DNA of 64,000 nucleotides, taken from positions 26,079-90,078 of the forward strand of contig WGMB01000001.1 of assembly GCA_016125275.1 (NCBI GenBank), read 5' to 3'. The notes beneath the pieces are model-generated. The model saw nothing but the letters and a program-made list of their open reading frames with translations. It had not been told where the DNA came from and did not search any database. This DNA comes from Acidobacteriota bacterium. Its GTDB lineage: Bacteria > Acidobacteriota > Terriglobia > Bryobacterales > UBA6623. The translations under genes were made by a program, and so were the position numbers. Every line of letters begins with the position of its first letter. Within the stretch, counting starts at the first letter, position 1. Of this stretch, positions 36,379-62,224 are shown one piece after another.

Positions 36379-37191
36379 CTATTCGCCGGACTGGAGCTGC
36401 AGCCAGACCTGCGGCGGCACGAAGGGATGCTTCTGCGCGGGCTCCATGCCGTGCTGCACCATCTTGATCTGGTAGCGGGCGATCGACTGGTGGACGCCCA
36501 TCGTCACGCCCTCCAGCCCGACCTCGTAGTCTGGGAAGGCGGAGTCGGGGAAGCGGACCTTCCAGCCGTAGCGGCCCTCGTAGAACTTGGGCTCGCCCAT
36601 GCCCCAGGCCTCGGTCGTCTTGGTGATCTGGGCCAGCTTTTCCGGGCTGACGTCCGGCGGCGTGCCGGCCTGCTTGAAGTACTTGAGGTCCTGCTCCCAG
36701 CGGATCTTGGCCGTCTGGTACTCGCGGTAGTTCTTGTACTGCGTGCTGACGGGCTTCTCGCCGAACACGTCGACGAAGCCGTCGGGAAGCTGCGCGGCGC
36801 CGCCCGTGGTCGCACCGGTTCCGCCGGCTCCTCCGGTGGCGATGTTGTTGGCGGCCTCGGCGCGCTTCCAGGGTTCCTGGCCGGTGAAGGGGTTCACGTA
36901 CCACCAGCCGCCGCCGTACTCTTCCGGCGCCTGGTGATAGGGGCCGTTGGGGGTTTTCCAGGAATCAGGCACGTCGGCGCGGTCGCCGACGGCCGTCCGC
37001 GGCGCGGGCTGCTGCGAAGCGGTGGGCGTGGGGTCGGCCGGGGCCTTGACCGAACCGCTGAGGGGTTCGATCGCCGAAGTGTCCAGCGCGTCGCGGAAGG
37101 AGCCGCCCTTGCGGGCGTCAGTCTTCGTCGACGGCTGCTTGAGCTCGGCGTCAACGCCTCCGGGAAGGGTGAGCTTCTGGTTGATCTTCAT
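36379..37191 (-). CDS. Hypothetical protein, candidate T3SS substrate
   Basis: ATG 37191 (MKINQKLTL...). Strong codon bias, disordered N-terminus, aromatic-rich core, no Sec signal, preceded by the locus promoter motif. Confidence 0.75.
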   Translation of the reverse strand: MKINQKLTLPGGVDAELKQPSTKTDARKGGSFRDALDTSAIEPLSGSVKAPADPTPTASQQPAPRTAVGDRADVPDSWKTPNGPYHQAPEEYGGGWWYVNPFTGQEPWKRAEAANNIATGGAGGTGATTGGAAQLPDGFVDVFGEKPVSTQYKNYREYQTAKIRWEQDLKYFKQAGTPPDVSPEKLAQITKTTEAWGMGEPKFYEGRYGWKVRFPDSAFPDYEVGLEGVTMGVHQSIARYQIKMVQHGMEPAQKHPFVPPQVWLQLQSGE

Positions 37192-37242
37192 GGCAATGTG
37201 CAGCCTTCGACCCCGCGAGCGGCCCAAGGTCCCTGCACAGAT

Positions 37243-37269
37243 GTTATCGCTTGGCGCGGCGGGAAGTTG
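37243..37269 (-). promoter_or_regulatory. sigma28-like promoter copy 1 (CAACTT-N14-CGATAAC)
   Basis: Minus strand reads CAACTT-CCCGCCGCGCCAAG-CGATAAC, 51 nt upstream of ATG 37191. Confidence 0.8.
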
Positions 37270-37369
37270 CCCCCCTGCGAAGGGGAGCTTCGGCAATTCC
37301 CGAGAATTGGTATCGTATGGCTTGTCGGTTGGGCCGGAAGAAGTTGCTGCCGGACGCGGTGAGGTCACC

Positions 37370-38053
37370 TTGGACGCCCGCTTGATGACCTTGATCGAGA
37401 AGCATCGGCCTTACGCCCGCGCGATCGCGGCGGAGGTGCTGCGGAAGCTCCCTCCCCACGCGGAAAGGGACGAGCTGGAGGCCGCCGCGGACCTCGGACT
37501 GGTGGAGGCCGCGCAGGCCTACGACGCCTCGCGCGGCGTCCAGTTCAAGACCTTCTCCTATTACCGCATCCGCGGCGCGATTTACGATTCGATCCGGCGC
37601 GCGACTTGGCTGTCAAAGTCCGAGTACGACAAGGTGCGCTTCGAAGCCGCCGCCAACTCCTACATGGGCGACCAAGCCGAGGGCTCCGCGCCGGACGGCA
37701 CGGCGGAGCAGATGCTCGACTCGCTGGGCCGCGCCAGTGAGTCGCTGGCCGTCTGCTACTGGATGTCTCTCGAGGCCGAGGGGATGCCCTCGCCCGAAGA
37801 CCCCTCGCTCGACGCCGAGGGGCAGCTGCTCGAGGATGAGCAGAGCCGCCTGCTGCGGGCGGCGATCCAGAAGTTGCCCGAGAACCAGCGCGTGGTGCTG
37901 CAGGGCTACTACTTCGAGGGCAAGAAGTTCAACGAGGTCGCCGACGCCTTGAATCTGTCCAAGAGCAGGGTTTCGCGCATCCACGCCAAGGGCCTGGAGG
38001 CCCTGCGGGACGCCTTGACCGGCTCGCTCGCCGCCGCTCCGGCCGGATCGTGA
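37370..38053 (+). CDS. FliA/WhiG (sigma28)-like RNA polymerase sigma factor
   Basis: GLVEAAQAYDASRGVQFKTFSYYRIRGAIYDSIR (region 2) and LPENQRVVLQGYYFEG...VADALNLSKSRVSRIH (region 4). Start TTG 37370 or ATG 37385. Confidence 0.9.
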   Translation: MDARLMTLIEKHRPYARAIAAEVLRKLPPHAERDELEAAADLGLVEAAQAYDASRGVQFKTFSYYRIRGAIYDSIRRATWLSKSEYDKVRFEAAANSYMGDQAEGSAPDGTAEQMLDSLGRASESLAVCYWMSLEAEGMPSPEDPSLDAEGQLLEDEQSRLLRAAIQKLPENQRVVLQGYYFEGKKFNEVADALNLSKSRVSRIHAKGLEALRDALTGSLAAAPAGS

Positions 38054-38054
38054 G

Positions 38055-38081
38055 CAACTTTTTCGGCGGCGCGACGATAAC
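38055..38081 (+). promoter_or_regulatory. sigma28-like promoter copy 2
   Basis: CAACTT-TTTCGGCGGCGCGA-CGATAAC immediately after the sigma stop, 10 nt before ATG 38092. Confidence 0.8.
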
Positions 38082-38091
38082 TCCAGCGAAC

Positions 38092-38628
38092 ATGGCAGAC
38101 CCGGTCATTACTCGATCCATCACCTCGGGCGTCACGCCGAAGCCGACCCAGACCGAAGGGCCGGCCAAGGGACAGTCGTTCGAGCAGGTGCGCCAGAGCA
38201 TGGCGGAGAAGATGCAGTCAACGGCGCAGATGCCGCCCGAGGCCGCCGCTCCGACCGCGGAAGTGAAGAAGTCTCTGGCGACGGAGCTGCACAAGAAGCT
38301 CCAGAACAGCCAGATGAAGACGCCGCAGCAGGTCTTCGGTCCCGAGATGCAGGACCTCGGCGGTAAGATCAACGGTTTACGGGTCAAGGTCGAGAAGACG
38401 CCGAACACTCCGGAGCTGTCGCCGCTGCGAACCCGTCTCGAGAAACTCGAGTCGCAGTTTTCGCAGACCGGCGCCCGGCTGGAGAAGCTCACGTCCACCA
38501 ACGACCCCCGGGCCATGCTGCAGTTGCAGGTCGAGGTCCATCAGATGACCCAGAATTTCGAGATCGTCTCCAAGGTAGTGGAGCAGGTGAACAGTGGAGT
38601 CAAACAGATTATTCAAACCCAGGTTTGA
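38092..38628 (+). CDS. sctI: T3SS inner-rod protein, SctI-like
   Basis: C-terminal DPRAMLQLQ...FEIVSKVVEQVNSGVKQIIQTQV fits the YscI/HrpB2/PrgJ-type helix; directly upstream of sctJ. Confidence 0.7.
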   Translation: MADPVITRSITSGVTPKPTQTEGPAKGQSFEQVRQSMAEKMQSTAQMPPEAAAPTAEVKKSLATELHKKLQNSQMKTPQQVFGPEMQDLGGKINGLRVKVEKTPNTPELSPLRTRLEKLESQFSQTGARLEKLTSTNDPRAMLQLQVEVHQMTQNFEIVSKVVEQVNSGVKQIIQTQV

Positions 38629-39433
38629 TCCGGCGCGGCGTTGGGGCCTCGCCGTCGTCGCCCTCGCGGCCTTGGCTTCGACGGGTTGTTTGCGGCAGGA
38701 GCTCGTGAGCGGGCTCGACGAGCGCGAGTCGCAGGAGATCATCGTGCTGCTCGAGTCCTACGGGCTCGACGGCGTGCGCGAGATGGTCGCGCAGGAACGC
38801 GCCGAGCCGACTTGGACGGTGCTGGTCCGCGGTGGCGACCAGAACCGCGTGACGGCTTGGAAGGTCTTGCAGGAGAACGGTTTGCCGCGCGAGCGCGTGC
38901 AGGGCTTGAGCGACGTGTTCGCCGAGCAGGGCATGATTCCCACCGAGACCCAGGAGAAGGCCAAGATTCTGGTGGGCCTGTCGGGCGAGATGAGCCGCAC
39001 GCTGCGCTCGATCAAGGGAGTGGTGGACGCCCGGGTGCACGTGGTGCTGCCGGAGGACAATCCGCTGGTGGACGAAGAGCGGCGCGCCAAGCCCTCGGCT
39101 TCAGTGCTGATCCGCTACGCGGGCGACAAGCCGCCGATTGCCCAGGCTGACGTGCTGCGCTTGGTGGCGAAGGGCGTGGAAGGCTTGCAGGAGGACCAGA
39201 TCGCGGTGGTGTTCCACAAGGTGGAGCAGACGCCGATTGCGCAGTCGGACCTGGCCTGGGCGCCGACGACCGACGAGTTGCTGGTGGCGTCGCTGGCGCT
39301 GCTGGGCGTGCTGGGTCTGCTGAGCCTGATTCTGCTGGGCCGCCTGCGGGCCCAGACCGGGCGCGTGAAGCAGCTCGAGCAGTTGCAGCTCGCGGCGACC
39401 CAGCCCACGCGCACGGAGGGAGGTAGGGCCTGA
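38594..39433 (+). CDS. sctJ: T3SS inner-membrane ring lipoprotein SctJ
   Basis: Lipobox LASTGC, L.SGLDERESQEI, GLPR, GMIPT..QEK, IKGVVDARVHVVLPE, PSASVLI, C-terminal TM. At about 280 aa it is too short for FliF. Confidence 0.93.
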   Translation: MESNRLFKPRFDPARRWGLAVVALAALASTGCLRQELVSGLDERESQEIIVLLESYGLDGVREMVAQERAEPTWTVLVRGGDQNRVTAWKVLQENGLPRERVQGLSDVFAEQGMIPTETQEKAKILVGLSGEMSRTLRSIKGVVDARVHVVLPEDNPLVDEERRAKPSASVLIRYAGDKPPIAQADVLRLVAKGVEGLQEDQIAVVFHKVEQTPIAQSDLAWAPTTDELLVASLALLGVLGLLSLILLGRLRAQTGRVKQLEQLQLAATQPTRTEGGRA

Positions 39434-39720
39434 GCCCCCGTACGCTGGCTCTGGCGCTGGCCCAGCGCGGCGAAGACCGCCGGGAGGCGCTGCTGATGCG
39501 CCTGCCGGAGGATCGCCGCGAAGCTGTGCGGGCGGAGCTGGAGAGCCTTCCGGCCGACCCCGCCGCCGAGCTGCGCCGGTTGCGCGAGGCGGAGCTGGCC
39601 GAGCTGGAGCGGCGGCGGCGCGAGACCTGGGGCTCGGTGTGGGGACGACTGCCGCCGGCGTTGCGCGGCTGGGCCTGGAATCCGACGGTGAACGATGGCT
39701 GGACGAATCCTCAAGGGTAG
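39430..39720 (+). CDS. Small helical protein in the sctK position
   Basis: Fills the sctJ-sctL gap. In-frame CTG at 39430 overlaps the sctJ stop (CTGA) 5 nt after GGAGGT; alternative ATG 39496. Confidence 0.55.
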   Translation: MSPRTLALALAQRGEDRREALLMRLPEDRREAVRAELESLPADPAAELRRLREAELAELERRRRETWGSVWGRLPPALRGWAWNPTVNDGWTNPQG

Positions 39721-40315
39721 CTCGGAGACCGTCGGCGGAGACCCCCGGCTGGTCAAGCGCTCCGTCTACGAAAGCGGACGCAGCGCCGAGGAGATCCTGG
39801 AGCAGGCCCAGGCCGACGCCGCCGCCTTGCTGGAGAAGGCCGAGGCCGAGCGCGACGCCCTGTTCGAGGAGGCTCGCGAAGCCGGGCGCGCCGAAGGCTT
39901 GGAGCGCTGGAACGCCCTGATTCTGGAGGCCGCCCAGGCCCGCGACAAGGCTCTGGCCGAGGCCGAGACCGAGATTCTGCAACTGGCCGTGCACATCGCC
40001 GAGAAGATCCTCGGTGAGCAGCTCCGCCAGGACCCCGGGTTGACCGCCAGCATCGTCCGCGAAGCCTTGCGCAGCGCCCGGCGGGACAAGGACGTCACGC
40101 TGCGGGTGCATCCCGACGCCGCGGCCGCCGTCGAGTCGCGGCTGCACGAGCTGCGCGACGGCTCGCCGCAGGGGGCTCTGTTCAGCGTCCGCGCCGATCC
40201 GGCCGTGGCACCGGGCGGCTGCATCATCCGCACCGAATCCGGCTCGGTGGACGCCCAGCTCGAAAGCCAACTGCGCTGCATCGAAGAGCTGCTGCTGCGG
40301 GAGGCCCGGCGATGA
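39695..40315 (+). CDS. sctL: T3SS stator SctL (FliH family)
   Basis: [13 protein letters not shown] repeats, [37 protein letters not shown]. Confidence 0.92.
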
Positions 40316-41625
40316 GCGCGGGGCACAACCTCAGCCGCTTTCTGCGCGTGGTGGACCGCGCCACGCCGGTGGAGGTGCGCGGGCGGGTGAAGGAGGTCAT
40401 CGGCCTGCTGGTGCGCGCCAGCGTGCCGGAGACCTGGATCGGCGAGGTCTGCCTACTCTATTCCGGGCGCTCCAGCGAAGCCTTGCAGTCCGAGGTGGTG
40501 GGCTTTCAGGACGGCGACGCGCTGCTGATGCCGCTCGGCGACCTGCGCCACATCGGCCCGTCGAGCGAGGTGAAGCCGACCGGACGCAGCCTGACGATTC
40601 AGGCCGGCGACTGCCTGCTGGGCCGCGTGCTCGACGGGCTGGGGCGGCCGATGGACGACCTGGGGCCGCTGGAAGGCGCCGTCGAGTGGGAGGTCGAGCG
40701 CAATCCGCCGGACCCCATGCGGCGGCGCAGGGTGCTGGAACCGCTCTCCACCGGCGTGCGTTCGATCGACAGTCTGCTCACCTGCGGCGAAGGCCAGCGC
40801 GTGGGCCTGTTCGCCGCCGCCGGCGGCGGCAAGTCGACGCTGATGGGCATGATCGCCCGCAACACCGAGGCCGACATCAACGTGATTACGCTGGTGGGCG
40901 AGCGCGGCCGAGAGGTGCGGGACTTCTTGGACGAGAGTCTGGGTGAGGAGGGGCTGAAGCGTTCGGTGGTGGTCTGCGCCACCTCTGACCAGCCGTCGCT
41001 GGTGCGGCTCAAGGCGGCCTACGTCGGCACGGCGATCGCGGAGTATTTTCGGGACCAGGGCAAGAAGGTCCTGCTGATGATGGATTCGGTGACGCGTTTC
41101 GCCCGCGCCAAGCGCGAGATCGGCCTGGCGTGCGGCGAGCCGCCGGCGCGGCAGGGCTACACGCCGTCCGTGTTTACCGAGCTGCCACGGCTGCTGGAGC
41201 GCTCCGGTAACTCCTCGGACGGCTCGATCACGGCCTTCTATACGGTGCTGGTGGCCGGCGACGACATGAACGAGCCGGTGGCCGACGAAGTCCGCTCCAT
41301 CCTCGACGGCCACATCGTGCTCTCTCGCGCGCTGGCCGCTCAGGGCCACTACCCGGCCATCGACGTTTTGCAGTCGGTGAGCCGCGTAATGTCGGCCGTG
41401 GTCGGCAACGACCATCAGATGCAGGCGCGCAAGATGCGCCGGCTGATGGCGGCGTACGAGAAGCAGCGCGACCTGATCCTGCTCGGCGCCTACGAGTTCG
41501 GCAGCGACCGGGAGGTGGACGAGGCGATCGAGAAGATCGAGTCCATCCGCGGCTTCCTGCAGCAGGGCGTGATGGAGCCTTCGACGTTCCAGTCGATGCT
41601 CGATCAGTTCCAGACGGCGGTTTAG
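40312..41625 (+). CDS. sctN: T3SS ATPase SctN
   Basis: Walker [12 protein letters not shown] (YscN-type), [10 protein letters not shown], Walker [42 protein letters not shown]. Confidence 0.96.
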
Positions 41626-41627
41626 GC

Positions 41628-42116
41628 ATGGCGCGCTTCCGCTATCGCTTGCAGGCCGTCCTCGACCAGAAGAAGGAGGTGCGGGAGAGGGCTCAGGAGG
41701 AGCTCACCCGGTCGCTGCGGGCCCAGCAGGAGGCCGAAGAAATACTCGCCCAACTGCGCAACAAAGAGCAGGAGCTCCGCGATAAGAAGGCAGAGCTGAG
41801 AACCGAGATGGTGACCGTTCAAGCCAGCGCTCAGGAGTTGCGGAGGCGCCGGGACTACATCCAACGCGTGGGCGAGGAGCTCGACGCGGCCGGTGCGGAG
41901 GTGTTCGGGCAGCGCATCCTGGTGGACGAATGCGTCGAGAACGTGGACCGCGCGCGGCTGATTCTGGCCGACGCCATCCGCGAAGCCGAGGCGCTCGAGA
42001 AGCACCGCGAGAAGCAGGAAACCGAGTTCTACGCCGAGATCGAGCGCAAGGAAGCCCTGGAGCTCGACGAGGCGGCCACGCAGTCCTACCTCAGGAGGCG
42101 CGGCGATGCGAATTGA
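41628..42116 (+). CDS. sctO: T3SS stalk SctO (FliJ family)
   Basis: FRYRLQAVL start, coiled coil, ALEKHRE...E..ELDE end; follows sctN. Confidence 0.88.
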   Translation: MARFRYRLQAVLDQKKEVRERAQEELTRSLRAQQEAEEILAQLRNKEQELRDKKAELRTEMVTVQASAQELRRRRDYIQRVGEELDAAGAEVFGQRILVDECVENVDRARLILADAIREAEALEKHREKQETEFYAEIERKEALELDEAATQSYLRRRGDAN

Positions 42117-42888
42117 GCCCAAGGCCGCCAAGCCGCTGAAGGCGGAAGGCGATGCGGCGGCGAGCCCGTCGGAGGCGTCCACGGCGCCCGGGTCCAAGCA
42201 GGCCGGGTCCAAGCCGGGCTCGGATTTCCGCAGCGTTCTCGAAAAGGGCAGGGGAGAGTCGCCGCAGAAGCCGTTGGCACGCGGCAAAGGCGGCGCGGCC
42301 GGCAAGCCGCCTTCGCGCTTGGCGTCGAACGCCCCGCTCCCGGGCGGAGACCCGCGGGAGGGAGCGGCCTCCCGGCTAAAGCCGGAGGGCCCCGGCCGCA
42401 GAAAGCAAGAGGAACCGGCGCCGCCGACGGACTTGGCCCCCGAGGCGCTGGCGGCGCCGTTACGGAACCAGGCTGAGCAGGTCTCCGCCCCCGCTCCGGC
42501 CGCACCCGCGACTCCGGTCGAGCGCATCGCCGACGAGATCGTGATGATTTCGCGGCCCGACGGCTCCCGCGAGATTCAGGCGGAAGTGGACTCCAAGGTG
42601 ATGGCCGACCTGCGCATCTCGGTGACCGAGCGCGACGGCCGCCTGGAAGTGAAGCTGCTGACCGACACGGCGTCCACCCGGCGCGAGCTCGAGAAGGCCA
42701 TGCCGCAGCTCTCGGCGGCGTTGCAGGCGCGCAACTTGAATGTGTCGACGGTGCAGGTGGTTCCGCGGGCGCAGGCGGCGCTGTCGACGCCGGAGCGGCC
42801 GCAGGACTCCCGGCAGGGACGCCAGGGCGAAGGCGGCGGGCAGGGGCGCGGCGGCCGCGGCGACCGTGACGAGCGAGGCCGCCGATGA
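42106..42888 (+). CDS. sctP: Length-control/ruler protein SctP (FliK-like C-terminal domain)
   Basis: Disordered Pro/Ala/Lys N-half, compact C-domain (LRISVTERDGRLEVKLLTD...RRELEKAMPQLSAALQARNL), located between sctO and sctQ. Confidence 0.75.
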   Translation: MRIEPKAAKPLKAEGDAAASPSEASTAPGSKQAGSKPGSDFRSVLEKGRGESPQKPLARGKGGAAGKPPSRLASNAPLPGGDPREGAASRLKPEGPGRRKQEEPAPPTDLAPEALAAPLRNQAEQVSAPAPAAPATPVERIADEIVMISRPDGSREIQAEVDSKVMADLRISVTERDGRLEVKLLTDTASTRRELEKAMPQLSAALQARNLNVSTVQVVPRAQAALSTPERPQDSRQGRQGEGGGQGRGGRGDRDERGRR

Positions 42889-44294
42889 GTGCGACGGCCA
42901 CGCCGTTGAATCTGACGCAACTGGAGGGTTGGTCCAAGTCCGAAGCGGCGGCCTGGAACGCTCTGCTGGCGGCTCTGCCGGCTGACGACGCTTGGTCGAG
43001 CTGGCTGGAGGCCGTGGCCGCCGAGACGTTGTCGCGCCCGTCGGGCCGCCGTCCCAAGCTGACCATCTCCAAGGTGATCCAGAGCGACGAGCCGCCGGTG
43101 GTGCAGGCGATGGAGGGCGAGCGGGTGGTGCTGGGGCGCGACGCCGAGTGCGACGTGGTCCTGCCCGAAAAGGTCATCACCAAGCAGCACGCGGCGGTCT
43201 ACCTGGAAGACGGGCGCTACTGGCTGGAGGACCTGGGCAGCGCCATGGGGGTCTTCCGGCGCAACAAGAAGCTCGAGCCGCACATGCCGGTCGAGCTCAG
43301 CGAGCAGGACCAGTTCAGCATCTTCCCGTACAACTGCCGGTTCGAGATCGAGGCCGTGTGGGCGCCGGAACAGGACGTGGCGCTGGGGGCCGTGGAGACG
43401 AGGGTCCAGACCTGGGCGGACTTCGAGCAGGCCGGCGGGGCCGGACAGCTCGTGTTTCCGCTGTTCGTCCACCCAGCCGGCCGGGCTCTGTTCGTGGAGG
43501 TCGAGGCGGGGCTGGCGGAAGAGATCGTGACGGGATCGCTGCCGGCGCTGGGCGAGTCGGCCGAGGCCGCCGGGCTGCTGGAGGTGGACCGGGCCCTGCT
43601 GGAGGTCTGGCTGCTGACGCTGGCGGACCGCTTGGGAGACAGCCTCGAGGCCGACATGCAGTTGACGCTGGGGACGCGTCCCGGGCCGGAGACGGCTTGG
43701 CCGCTGCTGCGCGGCGTGACGGTTGAGACGAGCCTGCGGATTCGCGGCCGGGGCCGGACGCTGCGCTTGTTTTTGCCGTTTCGGACGCTGGAGCGGATGC
43801 GCTACGCGCCGTCGCTCCAAGGCGCCGCGCCGGAGCAGGTGAGCTGGCGCTGCCGCGTGACGATCGCCACCGAGCGGTTCGAGGTCGGCGAGCTCAGCCA
43901 CCTGGAACCCGGCGACGTGCTGCTGCCCGACATCGGCGTGACCCTGTGGCTGCCCGGCGAGCAGCGCGCCGGCTGGCGCTGCACGGCCGACGCCGGCTAC
44001 TCGAGCCTCGAAATCGGCGAATATTTTGAGACGGAGTTGGACGTGTCAGATCAAGGCCCTCAGGCGGAAAACCTCAGCGAGCTCCCCGTGGAGCTGCATG
44101 TCGTCGTCGGCGACAAGCGCCTGACCTTCGCGGAAGTGCAGCAGTTGCGGCCCGGCTCGGTGATCGACCTCGAGCGGGCGCCGGACGCCCCGGTGGAGCT
44201 GTGGGCCAACGGCGCTCGCGCCGGCCGCGGCGAGCTGGTGGAGATCGACGGGAAGTTGGGCGTGAAGGTGACGGAATGGTTGCGCAAACCCTAG
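42885..44294 (+). CDS. sctQ: C-ring protein SctQ with an inserted FHA domain
   Basis: C-terminal SpoA domains (L..LEPGDVLL; LPVELHVVVG...L.PGSVIDL...GELVEIDGKLGVKV). FHA at about aa 57-156 (LGRD..CDVVL...ITKQHA...LEDLGS.MG). Confidence 0.9.
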   Translation: MSATATPLNLTQLEGWSKSEAAAWNALLAALPADDAWSSWLEAVAAETLSRPSGRRPKLTISKVIQSDEPPVVQAMEGERVVLGRDAECDVVLPEKVITKQHAAVYLEDGRYWLEDLGSAMGVFRRNKKLEPHMPVELSEQDQFSIFPYNCRFEIEAVWAPEQDVALGAVETRVQTWADFEQAGGAGQLVFPLFVHPAGRALFVEVEAGLAEEIVTGSLPALGESAEAAGLLEVDRALLEVWLLTLADRLGDSLEADMQLTLGTRPGPETAWPLLRGVTVETSLRIRGRGRTLRLFLPFRTLERMRYAPSLQGAAPEQVSWRCRVTIATERFEVGELSHLEPGDVLLPDIGVTLWLPGEQRAGWRCTADAGYSSLEIGEYFETELDVSDQGPQAENLSELPVELHVVVGDKRLTFAEVQQLRPGSVIDLERAPDAPVELWANGARAGRGELVEIDGKLGVKVTEWLRKP

Positions 44295-44698
44295 TCCGGG
44301 CCCTGCCTTTGGCGTGGTTGCAGCTCGCCGACGCCGGCTCGGTCGGCTCGGAAGGATTCGTAGAGATCGTATGGTGGGACTACTTCAAGGTCTTATTGGT
44401 ATTGGCGGCGCTGGTGGCGGGGGCGTATGCGCTGGTGCGCTACGCCGGGCCGAGGGTTCCGCACGCGGCCGGCGGCGCGGGGCCGGTGAGGGTTTTGGGG
44501 CGCTATCCGCTGGAGCCGCGCAAGACGCTCTACCTGGTGAGGGTGGGCGAGCAGACGCTGCTGGTAGGGGCTGCGGAGGGCTCGCTGAGCCTCCTGCACA
44601 CCGTGCCGGAGGGGTCGATCGACTTGGCGGCGTTCGAGCGGCCGAAGGTCTCCGGGGCGTTCCTCGAGAAGTTGCGGGAGCTGCAGGCGCGCAAATGA
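44276..44698 (+). CDS. fliO: FliO-like export-gate assembly chaperone
   Basis: Single TM, then VRVLGRYPLEPRKTLYLVRVGEQTLLVGAAEGSLSLL, the FliO cytoplasmic pattern. Directly upstream of sctR. Start approximate. Confidence 0.8.
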   Translation: MVAQTLVRALPLAWLQLADAGSVGSEGFVEIVWWDYFKVLLVLAALVAGAYALVRYAGPRVPHAAGGAGPVRVLGRYPLEPRKTLYLVRVGEQTLLVGAAEGSLSLLHTVPEGSIDLAAFERPKVSGAFLEKLRELQARK

Positions 44699-45423
44699 AG
44701 CGACTGGCTCCAGCTCTGGCGGCGCTGCTGCTGGCGGCGCAACCGTTGGCCGCGCAGACGCCGTCGGCGGATTCGCTCACCAACCCGGTGGTGATGGTGA
44801 TCGTGCTCGGCGCGATGGCCCTGGCGCCGTTCGTGATGATCATGCTCACCTCGTTCGTGAAGATCGCGGTGGTGCTGTCGATCCTGCGCAACGCGCTGGG
44901 CACGCAACAGGTGCCGCCGTCGCAGGTGATCACCGGGCTGGCGTTCGTGTTGACACTGTTCGTGATGTCGCCGGTGGCCGAGCGCATGTATGACGCCGCC
45001 GGGGGCGTGCCCGAGACGCGCGAGATCTTCTCGCAGGCCAGCGTGCGCAACGTCTACGAGGCGGTCAAGCGCGGGCGCGAGCCGCTGCGCGAGTTCCTGC
45101 TCAAGCACGCGCATGACAAGGACCGCATCCTGTTTCTGGAATTGGCGGCGCGGCTGGACGGCGCGGCCCCCGGGCGCGAGGATTTTCGGGTGCTGATCCC
45201 CGCTTTTGTGACTAGCGAGCTCAAGGAGGCTTTCCAGATCGGCTTCCTGCTGTTCATCCCGTTCATCGTGGTGGATATGGTGGTGGCGAACGTGTTGCTC
45301 GCGATGGGCATGCAGATGCTCTCGCCGGTGATCATCTCGCTGCCGTTCAAGCTGCTGCTGTTCGTAATCGTCGACGGCTGGTATCTGGTGGTGCGCGGCC
45401 TGGTGCTGAGCTACGCCGGCTGA
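44695..45423 (+). CDS. sctR: T3SS export apparatus SctR (FliP family) with cleavable-type signal peptide
   Basis: TSFVKIAVVLSILRNALGTQQVPP, LIPAFVTSELKEAFQIGF, LPFKLLLFVIVDGW. N-terminus MKRLAPALAALLLAAQPLAAQ. Confidence 0.95.
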   Translation: MKRLAPALAALLLAAQPLAAQTPSADSLTNPVVMVIVLGAMALAPFVMIMLTSFVKIAVVLSILRNALGTQQVPPSQVITGLAFVLTLFVMSPVAERMYDAAGGVPETREIFSQASVRNVYEAVKRGREPLREFLLKHAHDKDRILFLELAARLDGAAPGREDFRVLIPAFVTSELKEAFQIGFLLFIPFIVVDMVVANVLLAMGMQMLSPVIISLPFKLLLFVIVDGWYLVVRGLVLSYAG

Positions 45424-45436
45424 GGAAAGGGTTGCC

Positions 45437-45703
45437 ATGGATTCAGAAACCGTCATTCGACTACTGCGGGAAGGCTTGCTGCTGATCGTGCTGGTCTCGG
45501 CCCCGCCGATGCTGGCTTCGCTGGTGGTGGGCCTGACGGTCAGCATCTTGCAGGCCACCACGCAGGTGCAGGAGCAGACGTTGAGCTTCGTGCCGAAGCT
45601 GCTGGCGATCTTCTTGACGCTGGCCGTGGCCGGGCCCTGGATGCTGGCGCAATTGGTGCACTTTACTGACGCCGTGATGTCCGCCATCGTGGAGGTCCGC
45701 TAG
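45437..45703 (+). CDS. sctS: T3SS export apparatus SctS (FliQ family)
   Basis: LQATTQVQEQTLSFVPKL signature, 88 aa. Confidence 0.95.
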   Translation: MDSETVIRLLREGLLLIVLVSAPPMLASLVVGLTVSILQATTQVQEQTLSFVPKLLAIFLTLAVAGPWMLAQLVHFTDAVMSAIVEVR

Positions 45704-45711
45704 GCAAGCCC

Positions 45712-46545
45712 GTGGACGAGTGGATCCCCACCCTGCGCGAGATCGCCCGTTCGCTGGGCCTCGGCGGCGACCCGGCGGCCTACCTGGCCGTGTTCGGGCT
45801 GGCGTTGGCGCGCCTGGTCACGGCGATTTCGCTGGCGCCCTTTCTGGGCGGCAAGAGCGTCCCCAACCAGGTGAAGGTGGGTTTGGCCGCCGCGATGACG
45901 ATTCTGCTGTTTCCGCTGCTCGATCCTGTGGCCGAGGCGCCGCCGCCGACGTTGCTGTGGGTGGCGCTGCTGGTGAAGGAGGTCCTGATCGGCGCCCTGC
46001 TGGGGCTGCTGTCGCAGTTGGTCTTCTTCGCCATCCAGATGGGCGGAGCGCTGATCGACACGCAGCGCGGCATGAACCAGTTCAGCTTTTTCGCGCCGCA
46101 GCTCCAGGGCAATACCTCCGCGCTGGGGCTGCTGCAGTTCCAGGCCGCCCTGGTGGTCTTTCTGGCGCTCGACGGCCATTTGGTCTTTCTGCAAGCCCTG
46201 GCGGACAGCTTCCAGACCACGCCGGTGAACGCCTTTCCGCCGGTGGTGGCCGACGGCATGGCCTTCGTCGACCGGCTGGCGCGCTTCTCGGCGGACCTGT
46301 TCCTGATCGCCCTGCAACTGGCGGCGCCGGTGATGGCGGCGCTGTTCCTGATCGACGCCTCGTTCGGGGCGCTGGGCAAGATCGCGCCGCAGATGCCTGT
46401 CCACGGCGAAGCGCATACGCTCAAGAGCCTGGTCGGCCTGCTGATCGTGTTTCTGGCCTTGCCGCTGCTGATCCAGCAGTTCGGCGTCTCGATGGTGGAC
46501 ATGCTGGCCGGCGTGAAGGAAGTGGTGCGGAGGCTGTCGGCATGA
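45712..46545 (+). CDS. sctT: T3SS export apparatus SctT (FliR family)
   Basis: KEVLIGALLG, GALIDTQRG, LALDGHL, LAAPV, LGKIAPQM. Confidence 0.93.
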   Translation: MDEWIPTLREIARSLGLGGDPAAYLAVFGLALARLVTAISLAPFLGGKSVPNQVKVGLAAAMTILLFPLLDPVAEAPPPTLLWVALLVKEVLIGALLGLLSQLVFFAIQMGGALIDTQRGMNQFSFFAPQLQGNTSALGLLQFQAALVVFLALDGHLVFLQALADSFQTTPVNAFPPVVADGMAFVDRLARFSADLFLIALQLAAPVMAALFLIDASFGALGKIAPQMPVHGEAHTLKSLVGLLIVFLALPLLIQQFGVSMVDMLAGVKEVVRRLSA

Positions 46546-47609
46546 GCGGCCAGAAGACGGAGCAGCCGACTCCGAAAAAGCTCCAGGACGCGCGCAAGAA
46601 GGGCCAGGTCCCCAAGAGCCAGGACCTCACCAACGCCTTCCTGTTCATGACCGCCGCCGGAACGCTGGGGATGATCGGCGCGAGCTTGGTGGAGCGGCTC
46701 GAAGGGCTGATCCTGAGCTTTCTGGACGAGAGGACCTTCCAGGGAGACGCGCCGCCGTCGGAGCTGTTGTCGAGGGCCGGCGAGGCTTTCTGGACGGTGA
46801 TTCTGGCGCCGCTGCCGGTGCTGGCCGGCATGGCCGCGGTCTCACTGCTGATCGGCTTCGTGCAGGTGCGCGGGCTGTTCGCGCCCGAGGCCATCAAGCC
46901 CGACATCAAGAAGCTCAACCCGCTCGACGGCTTCAAGAACATCTTTGCCAAGCCCAAGACCTACATCGAGCTCGGCAAGAACCTGCTCAAGTTCGCCGTG
47001 GTGCTGGGGATCGTGTACGCGAACGTCAAGTCGATCCTGCCGGAGCTGCTGCTGACGCCCCGGGCGCGGCCCGAACAGGTTTTGCCGCTGGTCGGCGACC
47101 TGCTCAGCGACCTGCTGCTGCAGATCGGCACGTTCTTCCTGGCGCTGGGCGCGGCGGACTTCATCCTGCAGCAGAAGCTCCATCTCAAGGAGCTGATGAT
47201 GACCAAGGACGAGGTGAAGCGCGAGTTCAAGTCCGACGAGGGCGACCCGCTCATCAAGGGCCAGCGGCAACAGCTCCACCACGACCTGCTCAGCGAGGGC
47301 TCCATCGCAGAGACCGCCAAGGCCGACGTGGTGGTCGTCAACCCGACCCACCTGGCCGTGGCGCTGCGCTACGTGGAGGCCACGATGTCGGCGCCGAGGG
47401 TGACGGCCAAAGGGCAGGACGAGCGCGCCAAGGAGATTCTGAAGCTGGCTCGGCGTCACGACGTGCCCATTCTGCGCAACATCCCCTTGGCGCGCGGACT
47501 CATCAAGATCGAGATCGGCCACGAGGTGCCCGAAGAGCTCTACGCGGCGGTGGCCGAGGTGCTCAACTGGGTCTACCAACTGCGGCAGGCCGAAGCGGAG
47601 GAAGCATGA
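46542..47609 (+). CDS. sctU: T3SS substrate-switch protein SctU (FlhB family)
   Basis: KTEQPTPKKLQDARKKGQV, MTKDEVKREFKSDEGDP, autocleavage NPTH, VAEVL. Start ATG 46542. Confidence 0.96.
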   Translation: MSGQKTEQPTPKKLQDARKKGQVPKSQDLTNAFLFMTAAGTLGMIGASLVERLEGLILSFLDERTFQGDAPPSELLSRAGEAFWTVILAPLPVLAGMAAVSLLIGFVQVRGLFAPEAIKPDIKKLNPLDGFKNIFAKPKTYIELGKNLLKFAVVLGIVYANVKSILPELLLTPRARPEQVLPLVGDLLSDLLLQIGTFFLALGAADFILQQKLHLKELMMTKDEVKREFKSDEGDPLIKGQRQQLHHDLLSEGSIAETAKADVVVVNPTHLAVALRYVEATMSAPRVTAKGQDERAKEILKLARRHDVPILRNIPLARGLIKIEIGHEVPEELYAAVAEVLNWVYQLRQAEAEEA

Positions 47610-48016
47610 GGATTCTGGACGCATTGAACCCGATACAAGCCGGCGGAGCGCGCTCGCGCGAGCTGGCGAGGCAGGACGGCGTCTCCTTCCGCGAGCGCAT
47701 GAAGAAGCTCGCGCCGCTGCGGGCGGCGGGCTGGCGGCAGTTGCTGCGGCTGAACCGGGAGACGCAGGTCGACCCGTGGATCGCGCCGCCCACCGCGCCG
47801 CCGGGCTACGGAGTCTCCGATGCGGCTTCGGAGCGAGCGCAGATCCGCGGGATCGTCGACCAGCGGCTGCCCGCGCTGGCCGAGTACGCCGCCCCGGACG
47901 GCCTGCAACAGCGCAAGGACGCCGTCGGCAAGATGCTCGATCTGCTCGACCGGCAGCAGCAGGCCCAGGACCAGATCGCGGCGCGTGGCGCGCGGGCGGC
48001 GGCGCAGCACGGGTAG
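47606..48016 (+). CDS. Hypothetical T3SS-associated protein (possibly SctX-like)
   Basis: Translationally coupled to sctU (ATGA), 136 aa, C-terminal amphipathic helix, followed by a TPR gene. Confidence 0.6.
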   Translation: MRILDALNPIQAGGARSRELARQDGVSFRERMKKLAPLRAAGWRQLLRLNRETQVDPWIAPPTAPPGYGVSDAASERAQIRGIVDQRLPALAEYAAPDGLQQRKDAVGKMLDLLDRQQQAQDQIAARGARAAAQHG

Positions 48017-48022
48017 GACGGC

Positions 48023-48433
48023 ATGAAAGAGTTCGGATTCAGCGACAGCGATTTCTACGCCATAGCCCGGCGGGCCTATGAGCTCAGCCTGCAAGGCGCC
48101 TACGAGCCGGCGGCGACGCTGCTGGAGGGGCTGCGCGCAATCGACCCTTTGGATCGCCACAGTCTGCTATCGCTGGCCGCGGTGCGGATGAAGCAGGGGC
48201 GCGCGTCCGAGTCAGCGGCGATGCTCGAGGCCTGGCTGGCGGAGAGACCCCGGGACGAGCAGCCCCGGGCCCTGCTGATCGAGGCTCTGCTGGAGCTCGG
48301 ACGCGTTCCCCAGGCTCACGCCGAGCGTTTGCGCCTGGAGGCCGGCGGCGGCGTCCTGTCGCAACGGCTGGAATTACGGCTGCGGGCGGCCGAGCAGAGT
48401 GCGGATCGGACGCTGAGCCCGAGGCGTCGGTGA
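48023..48433 (+). CDS. TPR protein (SctY- or SycD-like chaperone)
   Basis: FYAIARRAYELSLQGAYEPAATLLEGL..IDP TPR pattern, 136 aa. Confidence 0.7.
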   Translation: MKEFGFSDSDFYAIARRAYELSLQGAYEPAATLLEGLRAIDPLDRHSLLSLAAVRMKQGRASESAAMLEAWLAERPRDEQPRALLIEALLELGRVPQAHAERLRLEAGGGVLSQRLELRLRAAEQSADRTLSPRRR

Positions 48434-48452
48434 TTTTTTTGAGGAGTCGGGT

Positions 48453-48479
48453 CAACTTCATCTCTCGGGGAGCGATAAC
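48453..48479 (+). promoter_or_regulatory. sigma28-like promoter copy 3
   Basis: CAACTT-CATCTCTCGGGGAG-CGATAAC, 81 nt upstream of ATG 48561. Confidence 0.8.
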
Positions 48480-48560
48480 TCGGGCGTAAGTCAGGGAACA
48501 AAGAAAAACCCCGGCGCAAGAGTTTCGGAGAGACAGTCAGCAGGCAGCAAACAGGAGGAA

Positions 48561-49733
48561 ATGAAAATGAATCTCAACCCTTTGAAGTCGATGATCCAGG
48601 TCGTGACCGCCCCGATGGGGCCGCTGGGCGGCGTGGTCGCCAACGTGTTGGGGGGATTGCTCGAAGCCGGCGCAAAGGGCAAGCAGCAGCTGACGGCTCT
48701 GCAGGCGCAGTATCCGAAGGCCTCGGGTTTTACGGGTGGACAGCAGACCGCTTCGCGGCCGCAACCGTTCTCGATCAACGTCATTCAAGTCACCGTCAAC
48801 CCGATGGACAACTTGCAGAAGGCCCCCGGCGCCGGCGCGCTGCAAAGCTTCGGCAAGGTCGGCGAAGTGGGCAACGACTCGCAGTGGGGCCAGTTCGCCA
48901 ACCAGGCCAACGCCCGCATCACCGGCAACGACAAGTCCTTCAACTTCAACGGGACCAACCCCTGGCTGGGCGGCGGCGACAAGAGCGACATGGCGGCCGT
49001 GGGCTGGGCGCTGCAGAAGAACGACAAGGTGAAGTTCAACTCCGACACCAAGCAGTTCTTCGTGACCAACGCCGACGGCTCGACCAAGAACGTGGCTTCG
49101 CTCGATGAGGTGAAGGCCCAGATCGCCAAGAGCGGCGGCGCGAACCCGAACAACGGCGCGGCCTACAACGCGGTCGGCTCGTTCCTCGACGGCCGGGTCG
49201 GCCAGGCCCAGGCGCAGTCCGCCAGCCAGCAGCCGCAGGGCGCCGAGGACATCATCAAGGCCCTCTCGGAGCTGTTGCAGAAGCTGCTGTCGGCGCTGAC
49301 CGGCCAGGGCTCCGCCGCCTCCGGCGCTGCCAGCGGCTCGTCGGCCCCCGCGTCCACCGGCGGAACCGGCTCGAGCGGCTCGGTCTCGGCCCCGGCGGCG
49401 ACCTCCAGCTCCCCCGCGGCGAGCGGCACGGGCTCGGCGTCCGGCTCCGGCGACGTGGCCTCCTCCGGCGCCTACGAGCCCGGCCAGGGTCTGCTCAGCG
49501 GCGTGAGCTCCTCGATGGATTCGGCGGTCTCCGCCATCGGCTCGAAGGTCGACAGCATGATGGACCAGGCCGAGAAGCTGATGATGTCCGACAAGCCCTC
49601 GGACCAGATGAAGGCCCAGCGGCTGATGCAGCAGGCCAACCGCATCCAGGAGATGTTCTCGAAGATGATGGAGGACATCCAGAAGAGGTTCAGCGCCGCC
49701 CTCGGCCGCGCCGGCTACCAGAAGGCCCAGTAA
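48561..49733 (+). CDS. Probable abundant T3SS-secreted protein (Cys-free, Gly/Ser-rich, needle-like C-terminal helix)
   Basis: SD CAGGAGG, own promoter, very biased codons, S/G/A linker, C-terminal QRLMQQANRIQEMFSKMM, adjacent class II-type chaperone. Confidence 0.7.
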   Translation: MKMNLNPLKSMIQVVTAPMGPLGGVVANVLGGLLEAGAKGKQQLTALQAQYPKASGFTGGQQTASRPQPFSINVIQVTVNPMDNLQKAPGAGALQSFGKVGEVGNDSQWGQFANQANARITGNDKSFNFNGTNPWLGGGDKSDMAAVGWALQKNDKVKFNSDTKQFFVTNADGSTKNVASLDEVKAQIAKSGGANPNNGAAYNAVGSFLDGRVGQAQAQSASQQPQGAEDIIKALSELLQKLLSALTGQGSAASGAASGSSAPASTGGTGSSGSVSAPAATSSSPAASGTGSASGSGDVASSGAYEPGQGLLSGVSSSMDSAVSAIGSKVDSMMDQAEKLMMSDKPSDQMKAQRLMQQANRIQEMFSKMMEDIQKRFSAALGRAGYQKAQ

Positions 49734-49747
49734 GGAAATCTCCAGTC

Positions 49748-49776
49748 GGGTCGGCCGCCTCCTCCGCGGCCGACCC
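49748..49776 (+). other. Perfect 11-bp stem-loop (mRNA stability element or leaky terminator)
   Basis: GGGTCGGCCGC-CTCCTCC-GCGGCCGACCC, 14 nt after the stop at 49733. No U-tract. Confidence 0.6.
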
Positions 49777-49832
49777 AAGAGTTTCACCAGACAACCGAGA
49801 CAAAGAGCAAGAAGACGGGAGACAGATTCAAA

Positions 49833-50324
49833 ATGCCGAACGAAACCGCAGTGACCGATGTGACTCTGGACCAGATCCTCGACGGCGAAGCGACGATGAA
49901 CGACATCTTCGGCTTCAGCGACTTGCAGATCCAGTCCATCGCCGTGCTGGGCTTCCAAGCCTACGAGCAGGGCCGCAACGACGAGGCGCGCATCCTGTTC
50001 GAGGGCCTCACCGCGCTGGACAGCAAGTCCTACTACGGCTACGCCGGCCTCGGCGTGCTGGCCCTGGTGGAGGATGACGTCGACGCCGCCGTCGACTACC
50101 TGCGCCAGGCGGCCGAGCGCACCTCCGGCGACGCGGCCGTCTACGCCAACCTGGGCGAGGCTCTGTTCCGCCAGGGCAAGGTGGAGGAAGCCGCCGACGC
50201 TTTCCAGAAAGCGATCGAGCTCGATCCGGAAGGCAAGGACCCGGGCGCCAACCGTGCCCGGGCCATGATGTACGGCGTCAGCGTCGTGCTCGAAGAAGCC
50301 GCCAAGGCGATGGAGCAGGAGTAG
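49833..50324 (+). CDS. SycD/LcrH-like (class II) TPR chaperone
   Basis: Acidic, 163 aa. GEATMNDIFGFSDLQIQSIAVLGFQAYEQGRNDEARILFEGL..LD..YYGYAGLG, three TPRs. Confidence 0.82.
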   Translation: MPNETAVTDVTLDQILDGEATMNDIFGFSDLQIQSIAVLGFQAYEQGRNDEARILFEGLTALDSKSYYGYAGLGVLALVEDDVDAAVDYLRQAAERTSGDAAVYANLGEALFRQGKVEEAADAFQKAIELDPEGKDPGANRARAMMYGVSVVLEEAAKAMEQE

Positions 50325-50344
50325 TGGCCGGGCGGGCCGGGGCA

Positions 50345-50362
50345 GGGCGGCGCGAGCCGCCC
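50345..50362 (+). other. GNRA-capped hairpin between chaperone and sctV
   Basis: GGGCGGC-GCGA-GCCGCCC within a longer GC-rich imperfect stem. Confidence 0.4.
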
Positions 50363-50416
50363 CGGCCCCGCTCCCGCCGATGGCGCGCAGCGGCAATCGG
50401 GTAACCTGGAGAGCTT

Positions 50417-52531: not shown

Positions 52532-52544
52532 GAGTACCGCAGAC

Positions 52545-52817
52545 ATGTCCAAACCGAACACCCCCGCCAAGGCCGTCGAAAGCGCCGAAGACGTTTCCTG
52601 GCGCTCCTTCCCGACGCTCGAGAAAGTCTTCAGCTCGGACCTGGAAGGCTTCTACGCCCGGGTGCAGGAGACCTGCGGCGAGCTCAACGCCATCATCGAA
52701 GGCTCGGAGAACCCGCGCGAGGCCGCCCGCGCCCGCAGCGCCATGGCGGCTTACGGCAAGACGCTCGAGCTGTTCCACGAGATCCAGAGCGAAATGGACA
52801 AGGCCGGCGCTCGCTAG
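52545..52817 (+). CDS. Small helical hypothetical protein (possible YscE-like needle co-chaperone)
   Basis: SD AGGAG, 90 aa, two predicted helices, upstream of the needle-like gene. Confidence 0.6.
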   Translation: MSKPNTPAKAVESAEDVSWRSFPTLEKVFSSDLEGFYARVQETCGELNAIIEGSENPREAARARSAMAAYGKTLELFHEIQSEMDKAGAR

Positions 52818-52823
52818 AGACGG

Positions 52824-52850
52824 CAACTTTTTCGCCGGTCCGGCGATAAC
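52824..52850 (+). promoter_or_regulatory. sigma28-like promoter copy 4
   Basis: CAACTT-TTTCGCCGGTCCGG-CGATAAC, 54 nt upstream of ATG 52905. Confidence 0.8.
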
Positions 52851-52904
52851 TCGGGTGAAAGCAGCCAGACGGGCTCAGCCAAAGAGAGGCGAGGAGAAAG
52901 CACG

Positions 52905-53261: not shown

Positions 53262-53272
53262 GCGAGGCGAAT

Positions 53273-53680: not shown

Positions 53681-53705
53681 TGAACCGTCAGCGAGTGCTA
53701 AGACG

Positions 53706-56221: not shown

Positions 56222-56237
56222 ACGAGGTTCAAGAGCC

Positions 56238-57304: not shown

Positions 57305-62188
<4,884 letters not shown>

Positions 62189-62224
62189 CCGTCGTCCTCG
62201 ACCTTCCAATTGTAGTGTCGCTGT

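Follow-up and report, generated by a model that had tools for sequence, protein, structure and literature searches.

The SctQ protein encoded in a stretch of 64,000 nucleotides from an Acidobacteriota bacterium (assembly GCA_016125275.1, contig WGMB01000001.1, positions 26,079 to 90,078; the whole stretch is hereafter called the window) carries an FHA domain ahead of its SpoA part, and SctQ proteins with this inserted domain mark a lineage of acidobacterial type III secretion systems (T3SSs) that is apparently undescribed. As far as titles and the beginnings of abstracts can tell, neither a fusion of FHA with SctQ or FliM nor a non-flagellar T3SS from Acidobacteriota turned up in the literature that we searched. 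Our interpretation of the domain is tentative, with somewhat less than an even chance of being right: the SctQ FHA domain would be an adaptor docking the pods of the sorting platform, in a system with phosphothreonine signalling that is read, in the clade to which the window belongs, mainly by a second FHA protein with a transmembrane helix encoded at the end of the same gene cluster.

The gene in question (42885-44294, plus strand, 469 amino acids; P0001) has sctP and sctR as its immediate neighbours and forms part of a complete plus-strand operon for a non-flagellar T3SS. It starts with an ATG that shares bases with the stop of the upstream sctP-like open reading frame (ORF), the sequence being ATGA, which makes the start credible. 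The NCBIfam SctQ equivalog model TIGR02551 matches residues 211-465 with 105.1 bits (cut-off 100.8), covering model positions 14-300 of 300, and PF01052 (FliMN_C) matches residues 396-466 (E 3.6e-22, 78.5 bits, cut-off 23.8). By SpoA domain, equivalog score and operon position, the protein belongs to the SctQ family. Internal translation starts giving a short SctQ-C product are a feature of YscQ, SpaO and Spa33; reading the sequence, we noted a candidate of this kind also here, namely a GGAG followed after six bases by an in-frame GTG near 44043 (44031-44045), some 83 codons before the sctQ stop.

The original prediction, made from the sequence of the window, placed an FHA segment ahead of the SpoA domains and described two deviations in its pocket, T-x-x-H and M-G, and all of this is borne out. 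PF00498 (FHA) matches residues 81-146 (E 4.8e-15, 56.2 bits, cut-off 20.7). An AlphaFold2 model built on 26 homologues (mean predicted local distance difference test score 79.8, with 84-94 over residues 50-160) consists of two N-terminal helices, a beta-sandwich at residues ~50-161 and then the SctQ core with its FliM/FliN-like half. Foldseek relates the sandwich to the FHA domains of MDC1, Ki67, OdhI, GarA and Rv1747 (TM(target) 0.80-0.88, root-mean-square deviation ~2 A) and the C-terminal half to the FliM(SPOA)::FliN structure 4yxc (E 3.4e-10) as well as to FliM of flagellar C-ring structures. When aligned by phmmer to solved FHA domains (ArnA, CT664, Rv1747), G84-R85 falls on the GR motif, T99-K-Q-H102 on SxxH and S119-A-M121-G122 on S-x-N-G, the same mapping as in the prediction. 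The SctQ domain is thus a member of the FHA fold family that lacks the full set of phosphothreonine-pocket residues.

The protein is not an SctD in disguise. Among the injectisomes described so far, SctD is the protein with the FHA fold, as the prediction had stated and as the accessible text of PMC10433427 agrees. CT664 of Chlamydia, which we take to be CdsD, the SctD homologue, is the third-best PDB sequence match to the SctQ FHA domain, and PF16697, the family of the YscD cytoplasmic domain, matches the FHA part of SctQ marginally (34.4 bits against a cut-off of 33.2), although the latter family also matches in control genomes without a T3SS. No transmembrane helix was found in SctQ and it has no periplasmic part; among the top Foldseek matches listed, no title names YscD, PrgH, MxiG or EscD, the matches to the sandwich being generic phosphothreonine readers.

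The fusion is recurrent. Ten of the 15 other matches in a set of 5.8 billion proteins carry FHA together with FliMN_C, from 77% down to 32% identity; the remaining five are one FHA-only piece of 276 amino acids and four proteins of FliM type. Among species-representative genomes, 20 of 59 matching loci show a full-length match, the other 39 matching the C-terminal part only, and all 20 are metagenome-assembled genomes (MAGs), 19 of them titled as Acidobacteriota lineages and one unlabelled. Gene order around sctQ is conserved across these loci, with sctN in 20/20 and the sigma factor gene in 17/20. A profile search of 1.84 billion representatives (50% identity) gave 217 proteins at E <= 1e-30; from the best 150 of these, 65 near-full-length ones were picked, and both FHA and FliMN_C are present (E <= 1e-5) in 63. 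There is also a more distant set of proteins in which FHA, FliM and FliMN_C occur together, with source names including Acidobacteria and Candidatus Schekmanbacteria. In three large clusters of the ESM Atlas (83, 64 and 131 members) every member has FHA (100%) and all or nearly all have FliMN_C (99-100%); the phylum met most often is Acidobacteriota, and every one of the three is named 'hypothetical protein'. The fusion proteins are already in databases with automatic annotation, one JGI name giving both domains. That the fusion might be unique to a single assembly, the circumstance that would have undone the prediction, is contradicted by the 20 syntenic loci and the 63 of 65 representatives, and its recurrence in many independent assemblies means that it is neither a chance event nor a mis-join.

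Five divergent matches from our sample of the phylum (401 genomes, one of which, G024, is flagged as unpublished and supports none of the results) were followed up (G057, G071, G084, G114 and G120); all of them bear FHA and all lie in the same type of cluster. One has an unusual organization: in G120 (L161:9966-11454) a part comprising the N-terminal segment and the FHA domain (189 amino acids, canonical pocket) and the SctQ core (345 amino acids) occupy two overlapping frames, which is either a true split gene or an assembly frameshift.

The statement that other SctQ and FliM proteins have no FHA domain also held, as it is carried by none of the 21 SctQ/FliM-like proteins scanned from Myxococcota and Pseudomonadota loci. 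FHA and SctQ were found in one frame in none of 121 sampled (threshold E <= 1e-14) and none of five chosen Myxococcota genomes, a search that did not take in the Myxococcus xanthus needleless T3SS (T3SS*) locus. Scanning for a hidden FHA domain in the Myxococcota short T3SS loci L053 and L063 and in L163, an orphan SctQ-like locus with kinases nearby, yielded none, and L062 was discarded as a possible carrier: its SctV is 58% identical, yet there is no FHA in its SctQ frame. Orphan SctQ-like genes (370-519 amino acids, FliMN_C only) occur outside T3SS clusters in Myxococcota (L163, L164 of genome G441, L165, L054 and L056), with Ser/Thr kinase genes 5-9 kb away, two each at L163-L165 and one each at L054 and L056.

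To place the lineage, a tree of SctU (46 rows, omitting loci without an SctU high-scoring segment pair of >= 250 amino acids) was inferred with IQ-TREE; it is rooted by midpoint only and includes several long branches and compositional outliers. The acidobacterial clusters are united with support of 100/96 and lie apart from the sampled proteobacterial injectisomes, joining (95/73) the Myxococcota short T3SS loci and a second export-gate locus of the window's own genome. Nested within the acidobacterial clade (fork support 92/82) is locus L038 (L038:8924-10213), from a MAG titled Deltaproteobacteria, whose SctQ has no FHA domain: Pfam gives FliM and FliMN_C only, an N-terminal segment that looks similar by eye runs straight into the core, and hhalign aligns its residues 68-428 to residues 174-469 of the window protein (98.8%). 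Either L038 comes from a mis-binned contig or it provides a control without FHA made by nature. Its place on the tree and this alignment show residues ~57-160 to be an insertion, and one that members of the clade can lose.

Where present, the module is well conserved. Within the window's clade (hereafter the crown clade, 26 full-length members) G84, R85, D116, G122, F147 and P148 are invariant, F147-P148 being near the end of the FHA domain. Only the last SpoA domain is more conserved (mean pairwise identity 0.57); FHA comes second with 0.44, ahead of the middle parts of SctQ with 0.33-0.34. Judging from these alignments, the module is under constraint.

The constraint does not extend to the whole phosphothreonine pocket. 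In Rad53-type structures, Arg and Ser of the FHA pocket contact the phosphate and Asn contacts the peptide backbone. Besides the invariant Gly and Arg, the crown clade retains H102 in 24 of 26 members, while the Ser position is occupied by A (12), T (11) or G (3) and the Asn position by L (15) or M (11), with the preceding residue mostly A, R or Q. The window protein itself keeps R85 and H102 and has Thr99 instead of Ser and Ala-Met (M121) instead of Thr-Asn. Across the wider family (67 representatives) the Ser position is G in 22, S in 21, T in 12, A in seven and another residue in five, and the Asn position L in 30 and N in ten, the rest being mostly hydrophobic; both Ser and Asn occur in nine representatives, which are the most distant ones, and four of these nine are without the Arg. 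All five deep-branching acidobacterial SctQ proteins, on the other hand, display the canonical G-R, S-x-x-H and N-G. From this distribution we conclude that the fusion began as a canonical phosphothreonine reader whose pocket decayed in the crown group, with the window protein (R, T, H, A-M) as an intermediate, and we infer that binding by the FHA domain of the crown clade would be weakly phosphate-dependent or phosphate-independent. The idea that a phospho-switch is read by SctQ itself is thereby weakened for this clade, as T, A or G takes the place of Ser, and M or L that of Asn, in all 26 members. A GarA-like autoinhibitory phospho-Thr motif at the N-terminus of SctQ was considered as well and dismissed, there being only an E-T-L-S stretch restricted to the window's subclade and no invariant Thr.

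An intact pocket is found elsewhere in the cluster. Its last gene encodes a small protein with the layout FHA domain, Pro/Ala-rich linker and a transmembrane helix with which the chain ends, so that there is no periplasmic part; GR, SREH and S-x-N-G are invariant in its orthologues. The structural model is closest to OdhI and GarA (33-34% identity, TM(target) ~0.8), and the best NCBIfam match is TIGR03354 (TagH), with 58.9 bits well below the cut-off of 120; NF049868 (FipA) also matches below its cut-off. An orthologue is located at the same end of the cluster in all six other crown-clade genomes examined (in four just past the fetched locus, in one on a contig holding the second half of the cluster, the sixth being L007), and the gene is beside the cluster in none of the five deep-branch genomes, the ones with a canonical SctQ FHA domain, where only generic FHA matches occur elsewhere. 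Seen in 7 + 5 related genomes, the complementarity has the standing of a pattern and not of a statistic. On this view phosphothreonine reading may be old in the lineage and may have passed in the crown group to a separate, putatively membrane-anchored reader. Prediction of a complex between residues 1-190 of SctQ and residues 1-135 of the small FHA protein returned a score of 0.00, which counts neither for nor against binding.

Candidate writers of the phosphorylation are also close at hand. Fifteen Ser/Thr kinases of the genome pass the Pfam cut-off, and three of them lie around the cluster (C3:60.8-95.8 kb, ~35 kb). The one divergent from the operon possesses a long Pro/Glu repeat linker, a second kinase-like stretch and a transmembrane helix at its extreme C-terminus (residues 585-603); it and the small FHA protein would both be tail-anchored, the remainder being cytoplasmic. 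The two proteins have a similar C-terminal transmembrane ending (A-rich, then WW, then L/R). Upstream of this kinase is an unassigned gene for 329 amino acids with a paralogue at C18:105168-105719 (39% identity, E 5e-41), which identifies the minus strand as its coding strand. Elsewhere, a kinase-domain match occurs <=10 kb upstream of sctQ in seven of the 20 loci, in four of them divergent and adjacent as in the window, and two further genomes have kinases downstream of the cluster. All seven kinase-adjacent loci have G or A at the Ser position of SctQ, so the link to kinases is independent of the SctQ pocket. The lineage as a whole looks phospho-linked, to judge by the deep-branch pockets, the FHA-transmembrane protein of the crown group and the three of 15 kinases grouped around the cluster.

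How the sorting platform is attached to the membrane rings is a central question of T3SS research. To our knowledge, all studied injectisomes employ a chain from the FHA-like domain of SctD through SctK to SctQ. SctK normally binds the N-terminal end of SctQ. In the window's genome (7.55 Mb, 97.6% complete) PF06578 (SctK) has no match, PF09482 (SctK) has a single match (E 0.13) elsewhere than the cluster, and TIGR02500 (SctD) finds nothing in the window and, genome-wide, one match with E 0.026 on another contig. The interval between sctJ and sctL is only ~260 nt. The cluster contains no secretin gene either, five PF00263 matches being present in the genome, with the nearest weak and ~50 kb away. 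For the roles of SctK and of the SctD FHA domain in docking we refer to 10.1101/2020.09.22.308627 and PMC9907115, in so far as their accessible parts describe them. SctJ of the acidobacterial clade, in turn, has an extended cytoplasmic tail after its transmembrane helix (the C-terminal ~36 amino acids in the window protein, residues ~244-279). Most crown-clade loci have the motif R-W-Q-R-S-K-I-E-x-L-E there, whereas the window and the deep branches show more variation; in the SctJ proteins examined from Proteobacteria and Myxococcota the tail is short and without that motif. The SctJ tail could be the docking site of the pods, and it and, in the crown group only, the small FHA-transmembrane protein are our candidate partners of the SctQ FHA domain.

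The arrangement we tentatively favour would then be as follows. The FHA domain would sit at the membrane-proximal tip of each sorting-platform pod and tie the pods to the membrane, in place of SctK bound to the FHA-like domain of SctD. In the window's clade it would be the descendant of a canonical reader, with a half-degenerate pocket and with binding that depends little or not at all on phosphate, and the canonical reader of the crown clade would be the small FHA-transmembrane protein, controlling assembly or firing together with the tail-anchored and the flanking kinases. Accordingly, one half of the original proposal fares better than the other: docking of the C-ring through FHA is plausible, given that no SctK or SctD is detectable and the domain is at the SctK-binding end of SctQ, and a phospho-switch operated by the same FHA domain is not supported as it was stated.

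Several observations weigh against this arrangement. The position of the domain in the pod is derived from the SctK-SctQ binding site of other systems. Sequence conservation is poor in SctK and in the periplasmic part of SctD; a silent hidden Markov model is therefore no proof of absence, and several ORFs of 90-136 codons in the cluster, most with homologues in other acidobacterial loci, are unaccounted for. Phospho-dependence of the window FHA domain may persist, since no member of the clade has lost R85 and a hydrogen bond from T99 to a phosphate is still conceivable; within the wider family, the Ser position is Ser in 21/67 and Thr in 12/67 representatives. FHA-SctQ is moreover more widespread than the FHA-transmembrane protein, which therefore is not a universal partner, and kinases are adjacent in only 7/20 loci.

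Another possibility, in our view rather unlikely, is that SctQ reads phosphothreonine with its own FHA domain, T99 taking over the part of Ser, and that the pods dock only once the neighbouring kinase has phosphorylated a membrane partner. Such a device would be the T3SS counterpart of PpkA-Fha1, the threonine-phosphorylation switch of type VI secretion. It would explain why R85 never varies and H102 hardly does, why 11 of the 26 members, the window's subclade, have the hydroxyl of a Thr, why the pocket is fully canonical in all five deep-branching relatives, and why a tail-anchored kinase stands directly upstream with further kinases locally enriched; there is also a T3SS precedent in Chlamydia, where PknD phosphorylates the FHA-bearing CdsD, according to the part of PMC2765968 available to us. 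However, the Asn of N-G never occurs in the clade (L 15, M 11), where A, R or Q mostly precedes the position, Ala or Gly replaces Ser in 15 members of the clade and in 7/7 kinase-adjacent loci, no obvious partner has an invariant Thr, and the cluster encodes another FHA domain with a perfect pocket.

Alternatively, FHA might be a recruitment module for substrates, chaperone-substrate complexes, the kinase or another regulator, with other parts of the protein attaching the pods to the membrane, for example the N-terminal helices on the SctJ tail; we regard this as quite unlikely. FHA is a general protein-binding module, and the kil clusters of Myxococcus are FHA-rich according to the accessible parts of PMC8460266 and PMC12428579; the extended SctJ tail could dock the pods by itself, and the FHA-less SctQ of L038 has a similar-looking N-terminal segment (by eye). 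Yet we identified no conserved motif that would single out a candidate ligand, and the strong conservation of F147-P148 and the loops fits docking equally well. Finally, it is hardly credible that the fusion arose through faulty assembly or annotation, or that it is a functionless relic in decay: the two overlapping frames of G120 and frameshifts in several long-read MAG loci could be quoted in its favour, but a single open frame is repeated in independent assemblies from many studies, the FHA domain is better conserved than the middle of SctQ, and the sctQ start codon is translationally coupled to sctP, so that recurrence and conservation contradict it already.

If docking by the pod FHA domain and phosphothreonine signalling are taken together, a bolder scheme emerges, which we consider unlikely as a whole: in a secretin-less acidobacterial T3SS, assembly or firing of the sorting platform would be gated by Thr phosphorylation, the pod protein being the phosphothreonine reader in the deep branches, this task having passed in the crown group to the tail-anchored FHA protein and the tail-anchored kinases, and the pod FHA domain acting as a structural link that replaces SctK and SctD. 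If it were true, the machine could be a contact-triggered antibacterial weapon or a predatory one, like the Kil/T3SS* pair of Myxococcus.

Comparison with known systems helps to delimit what is new. The window protein shares with SctQ proteins (YscQ, SpaO, Spa33, HrcQ) the SpoA (FliMN_C) C-terminus, the TIGR02551 score above the cut-off, the position between sctP and sctR and the neighbours SctL, SctN and SctO, and differs from them by an FHA fold of ~105 additional residues that follows the N-terminal segment and by belonging to a system in which SctK, to which the N-terminus of SctQ usually binds, is not detectable. With the cytoplasmic FHA-like domain of SctD (YscD, PrgH, MxiG, EscD, CdsD) it has in common an FHA fold in a T3SS, presumably at the interface of ring and pod, except that the fold is here fused to SctQ and not to a transmembrane and periplasmic ring protein. 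The needleless T3SS* of M. xanthus and the Myxo-type non-flagellar T3SS likewise have no secretin in the cluster and several LcrH-like chaperones, as far as the accessible text of PMC10433427, PMC12075869 and PMC3459982 goes; unlike the window system, in which none is detected, T3SS* is reported in the accessible text of PMC10433427 to have SctD, and the inspected Myxococcota SctQ proteins, which do not include that of M. xanthus T3SS*, are without FHA.

The small FHA-transmembrane protein and the kinases recall the type VI secretion pathway of PpkA, PppA and Fha1-TagH, in which a secretion cluster likewise contains a canonical FHA protein and Ser/Thr kinases and from which the best NCBIfam match of the protein comes; that pathway controls type VI and not type III secretion, and the TIGR03354 score is below the cut-off. 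PpkA-Fha1 is mentioned in passing in the part of PMC8460266 available to us. GarA and OdhI are the nearest structures, and FhaB/FipA of actinobacteria share the layout of FHA and a single transmembrane helix, but again the family scores are below the cut-offs, and the context is a T3SS cluster rather than the control of cell division or of the tricarboxylic acid cycle.

According to the accessible parts of PMC10433427, PMC12075869, PMC12428579 and PMC8460266, T3SS* of M. xanthus works with the Tad-like pilus Kil, amid FHA-rich kil clusters. Directly after the T3SS cluster of the window (54956-57170, plus strand) there are three genes resembling Tad minor pilins, one TadG-like (421 amino acids with a large C-terminal part) and two TadE-like (~56280-56705 and 56739-57170). 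This trio is reminiscent of KilL/M/N, the 'Tip' triads which in Myxococcus act together with the needleless T3SS* (PMC12075869, in its accessible part); no homologue of it was found beside the cluster in five other genomes examined. The genome was also considered for a KilF-like FHA-ATPase, a candidate that was rejected: its four other strong FHA ORFs, read by eye, appear to be a sigma-54 activator, an FHA-transmembrane-transglycosylase protein and two FHA-GAF-PP2C proteins.

The lineage is of interest on several counts. A large and diversified group with FHA on SctQ and without detectable SctK and SctD amounts to a natural experiment on pod docking, and a single family whose pockets grade from canonical to degenerate offers ready-made mutants. 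The group links T3SS to Ser/Thr kinase signalling, otherwise documented mainly for type VI secretion and Chlamydia CdsD. It also places a non-flagellar T3SS in Acidobacteriota, a phylum that ranks with the most abundant bacteria of soils; in the 2012 survey by Abby and Rocha (PMC3459982), in its accessible part, these systems had been confined to Chlamydiae, Proteobacteria and Verrucomicrobia. The DnaJ encoded in the window, 82% identical to its counterpart in a Bryobacterales MAG, assigns the organism to Acidobacteriota.

Table 1. Segments of SctQ and features of the surrounding T3SS cluster in the window (positions are those of the window).
Feature	Position	Strand	Remarks
Ser/Thr kinase, 612 aa	34502..36340	-	Pkinase E 2.3e-42; divergent from the T3SS operon
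Unassigned gene, 329 aa, upstream of the kinase	36379..37368	-	weak TPR_23 match only
FliA-like sigma factor	in operon half 36947..42888	+	longest ORF has the domain from aa 148 onwards
SctI/F-like, 192 aa	38050-38628	+	weak SctI and SctF matches, below cut-offs
SctJ	38594-39433	+	upstream half of operon
SctL	39695-40315	+	upstream half of operon
SctN	40312-41625	+	upstream half of operon
SctO	41628-42116	+	upstream half of operon
SctP-like	42106-42888	+	upstream half of operon
SctQ, N-terminal segment, aa 1-56	42885..43052	+	two helices in model; N25, P32, W40 invariant
SctQ, FHA beta-sandwich, aa ~57-160	43053..43364	+	Pfam core aa 81-146 = nt 43125-43322; pocket G84, R85, T99, H102, S119, A120, M121, G122
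SctQ core (FliM-like middle and first SpoA-like part), aa ~161-395	43365..44069	+	TIGR02551; Foldseek FliM; hhalign to L038
SctQ, C-terminal SpoA/FliMN_C domain, aa 396-466	44070..44282	+	PF01052; 4yxc match
SctR	44314-45423	+	downstream half of operon (44314..54041)
SctS	45437-45703	+	downstream half of operon
SctT	45712-46545	+	downstream half of operon
SctU	~46551-47609	+	downstream half of operon
SctV	50417-52531	+	downstream half of operon
Three LcrH/SycD-like TPR proteins	48023-48433, 49833-50324, 53273-53680	+	
Unassigned ORFs	47606-48016, 48561-49733, 52545-52817, 52905-53261, ~53700-54041	+	most with homologues at the same place in acidobacterial loci
Small tail-anchored FHA protein, 164 aa	54049-54543	+	last gene of the cluster; canonical GR, SREH, S-S-N-G
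Second Ser/Thr kinase, 1634 aa, with TPR and PEGA domains	57305..62209	-	flanks the cluster

Some features of the cluster and its genome deserve a brief mention. The small conserved ORFs were considered as needle, co-chaperone or SctK genes, for which there is no Pfam support. The needle subunit and its two chaperones are encoded in the order yscE-yscF-yscG; the succession of a 90-aa ORF, a 118-aa ORF and a TPR protein at 52545-53680 (plus strand) resembles it, again with no support from Pfam, and homologues of the 118-aa ORF also lie beside sctJ in Myxococcota short T3SS loci. The longest SctR ORF (44314-45423) has ~150 extra residues ahead of the FliP domain, without a Pfam match; as Myxococcota loci have a separate FliO gene at the corresponding place, the extension may represent a FliO-like gene or a fusion. 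The second export-gate set of the window's genome (contig C18:119908-133530) comprises SctR/S/U-like genes with 24-42% identity, and an FHA protein ~10 kb from it looks, by eye, fused to a sigma-54 activator. Outside the T3SS cluster, the region 23271-25997 (minus strand) encodes a protein of 908 amino acids that shows, in an acidobacterial genome, the domain set called 'planctomycete cytochrome' (PSCyt1, PSCyt2 and PSD1).

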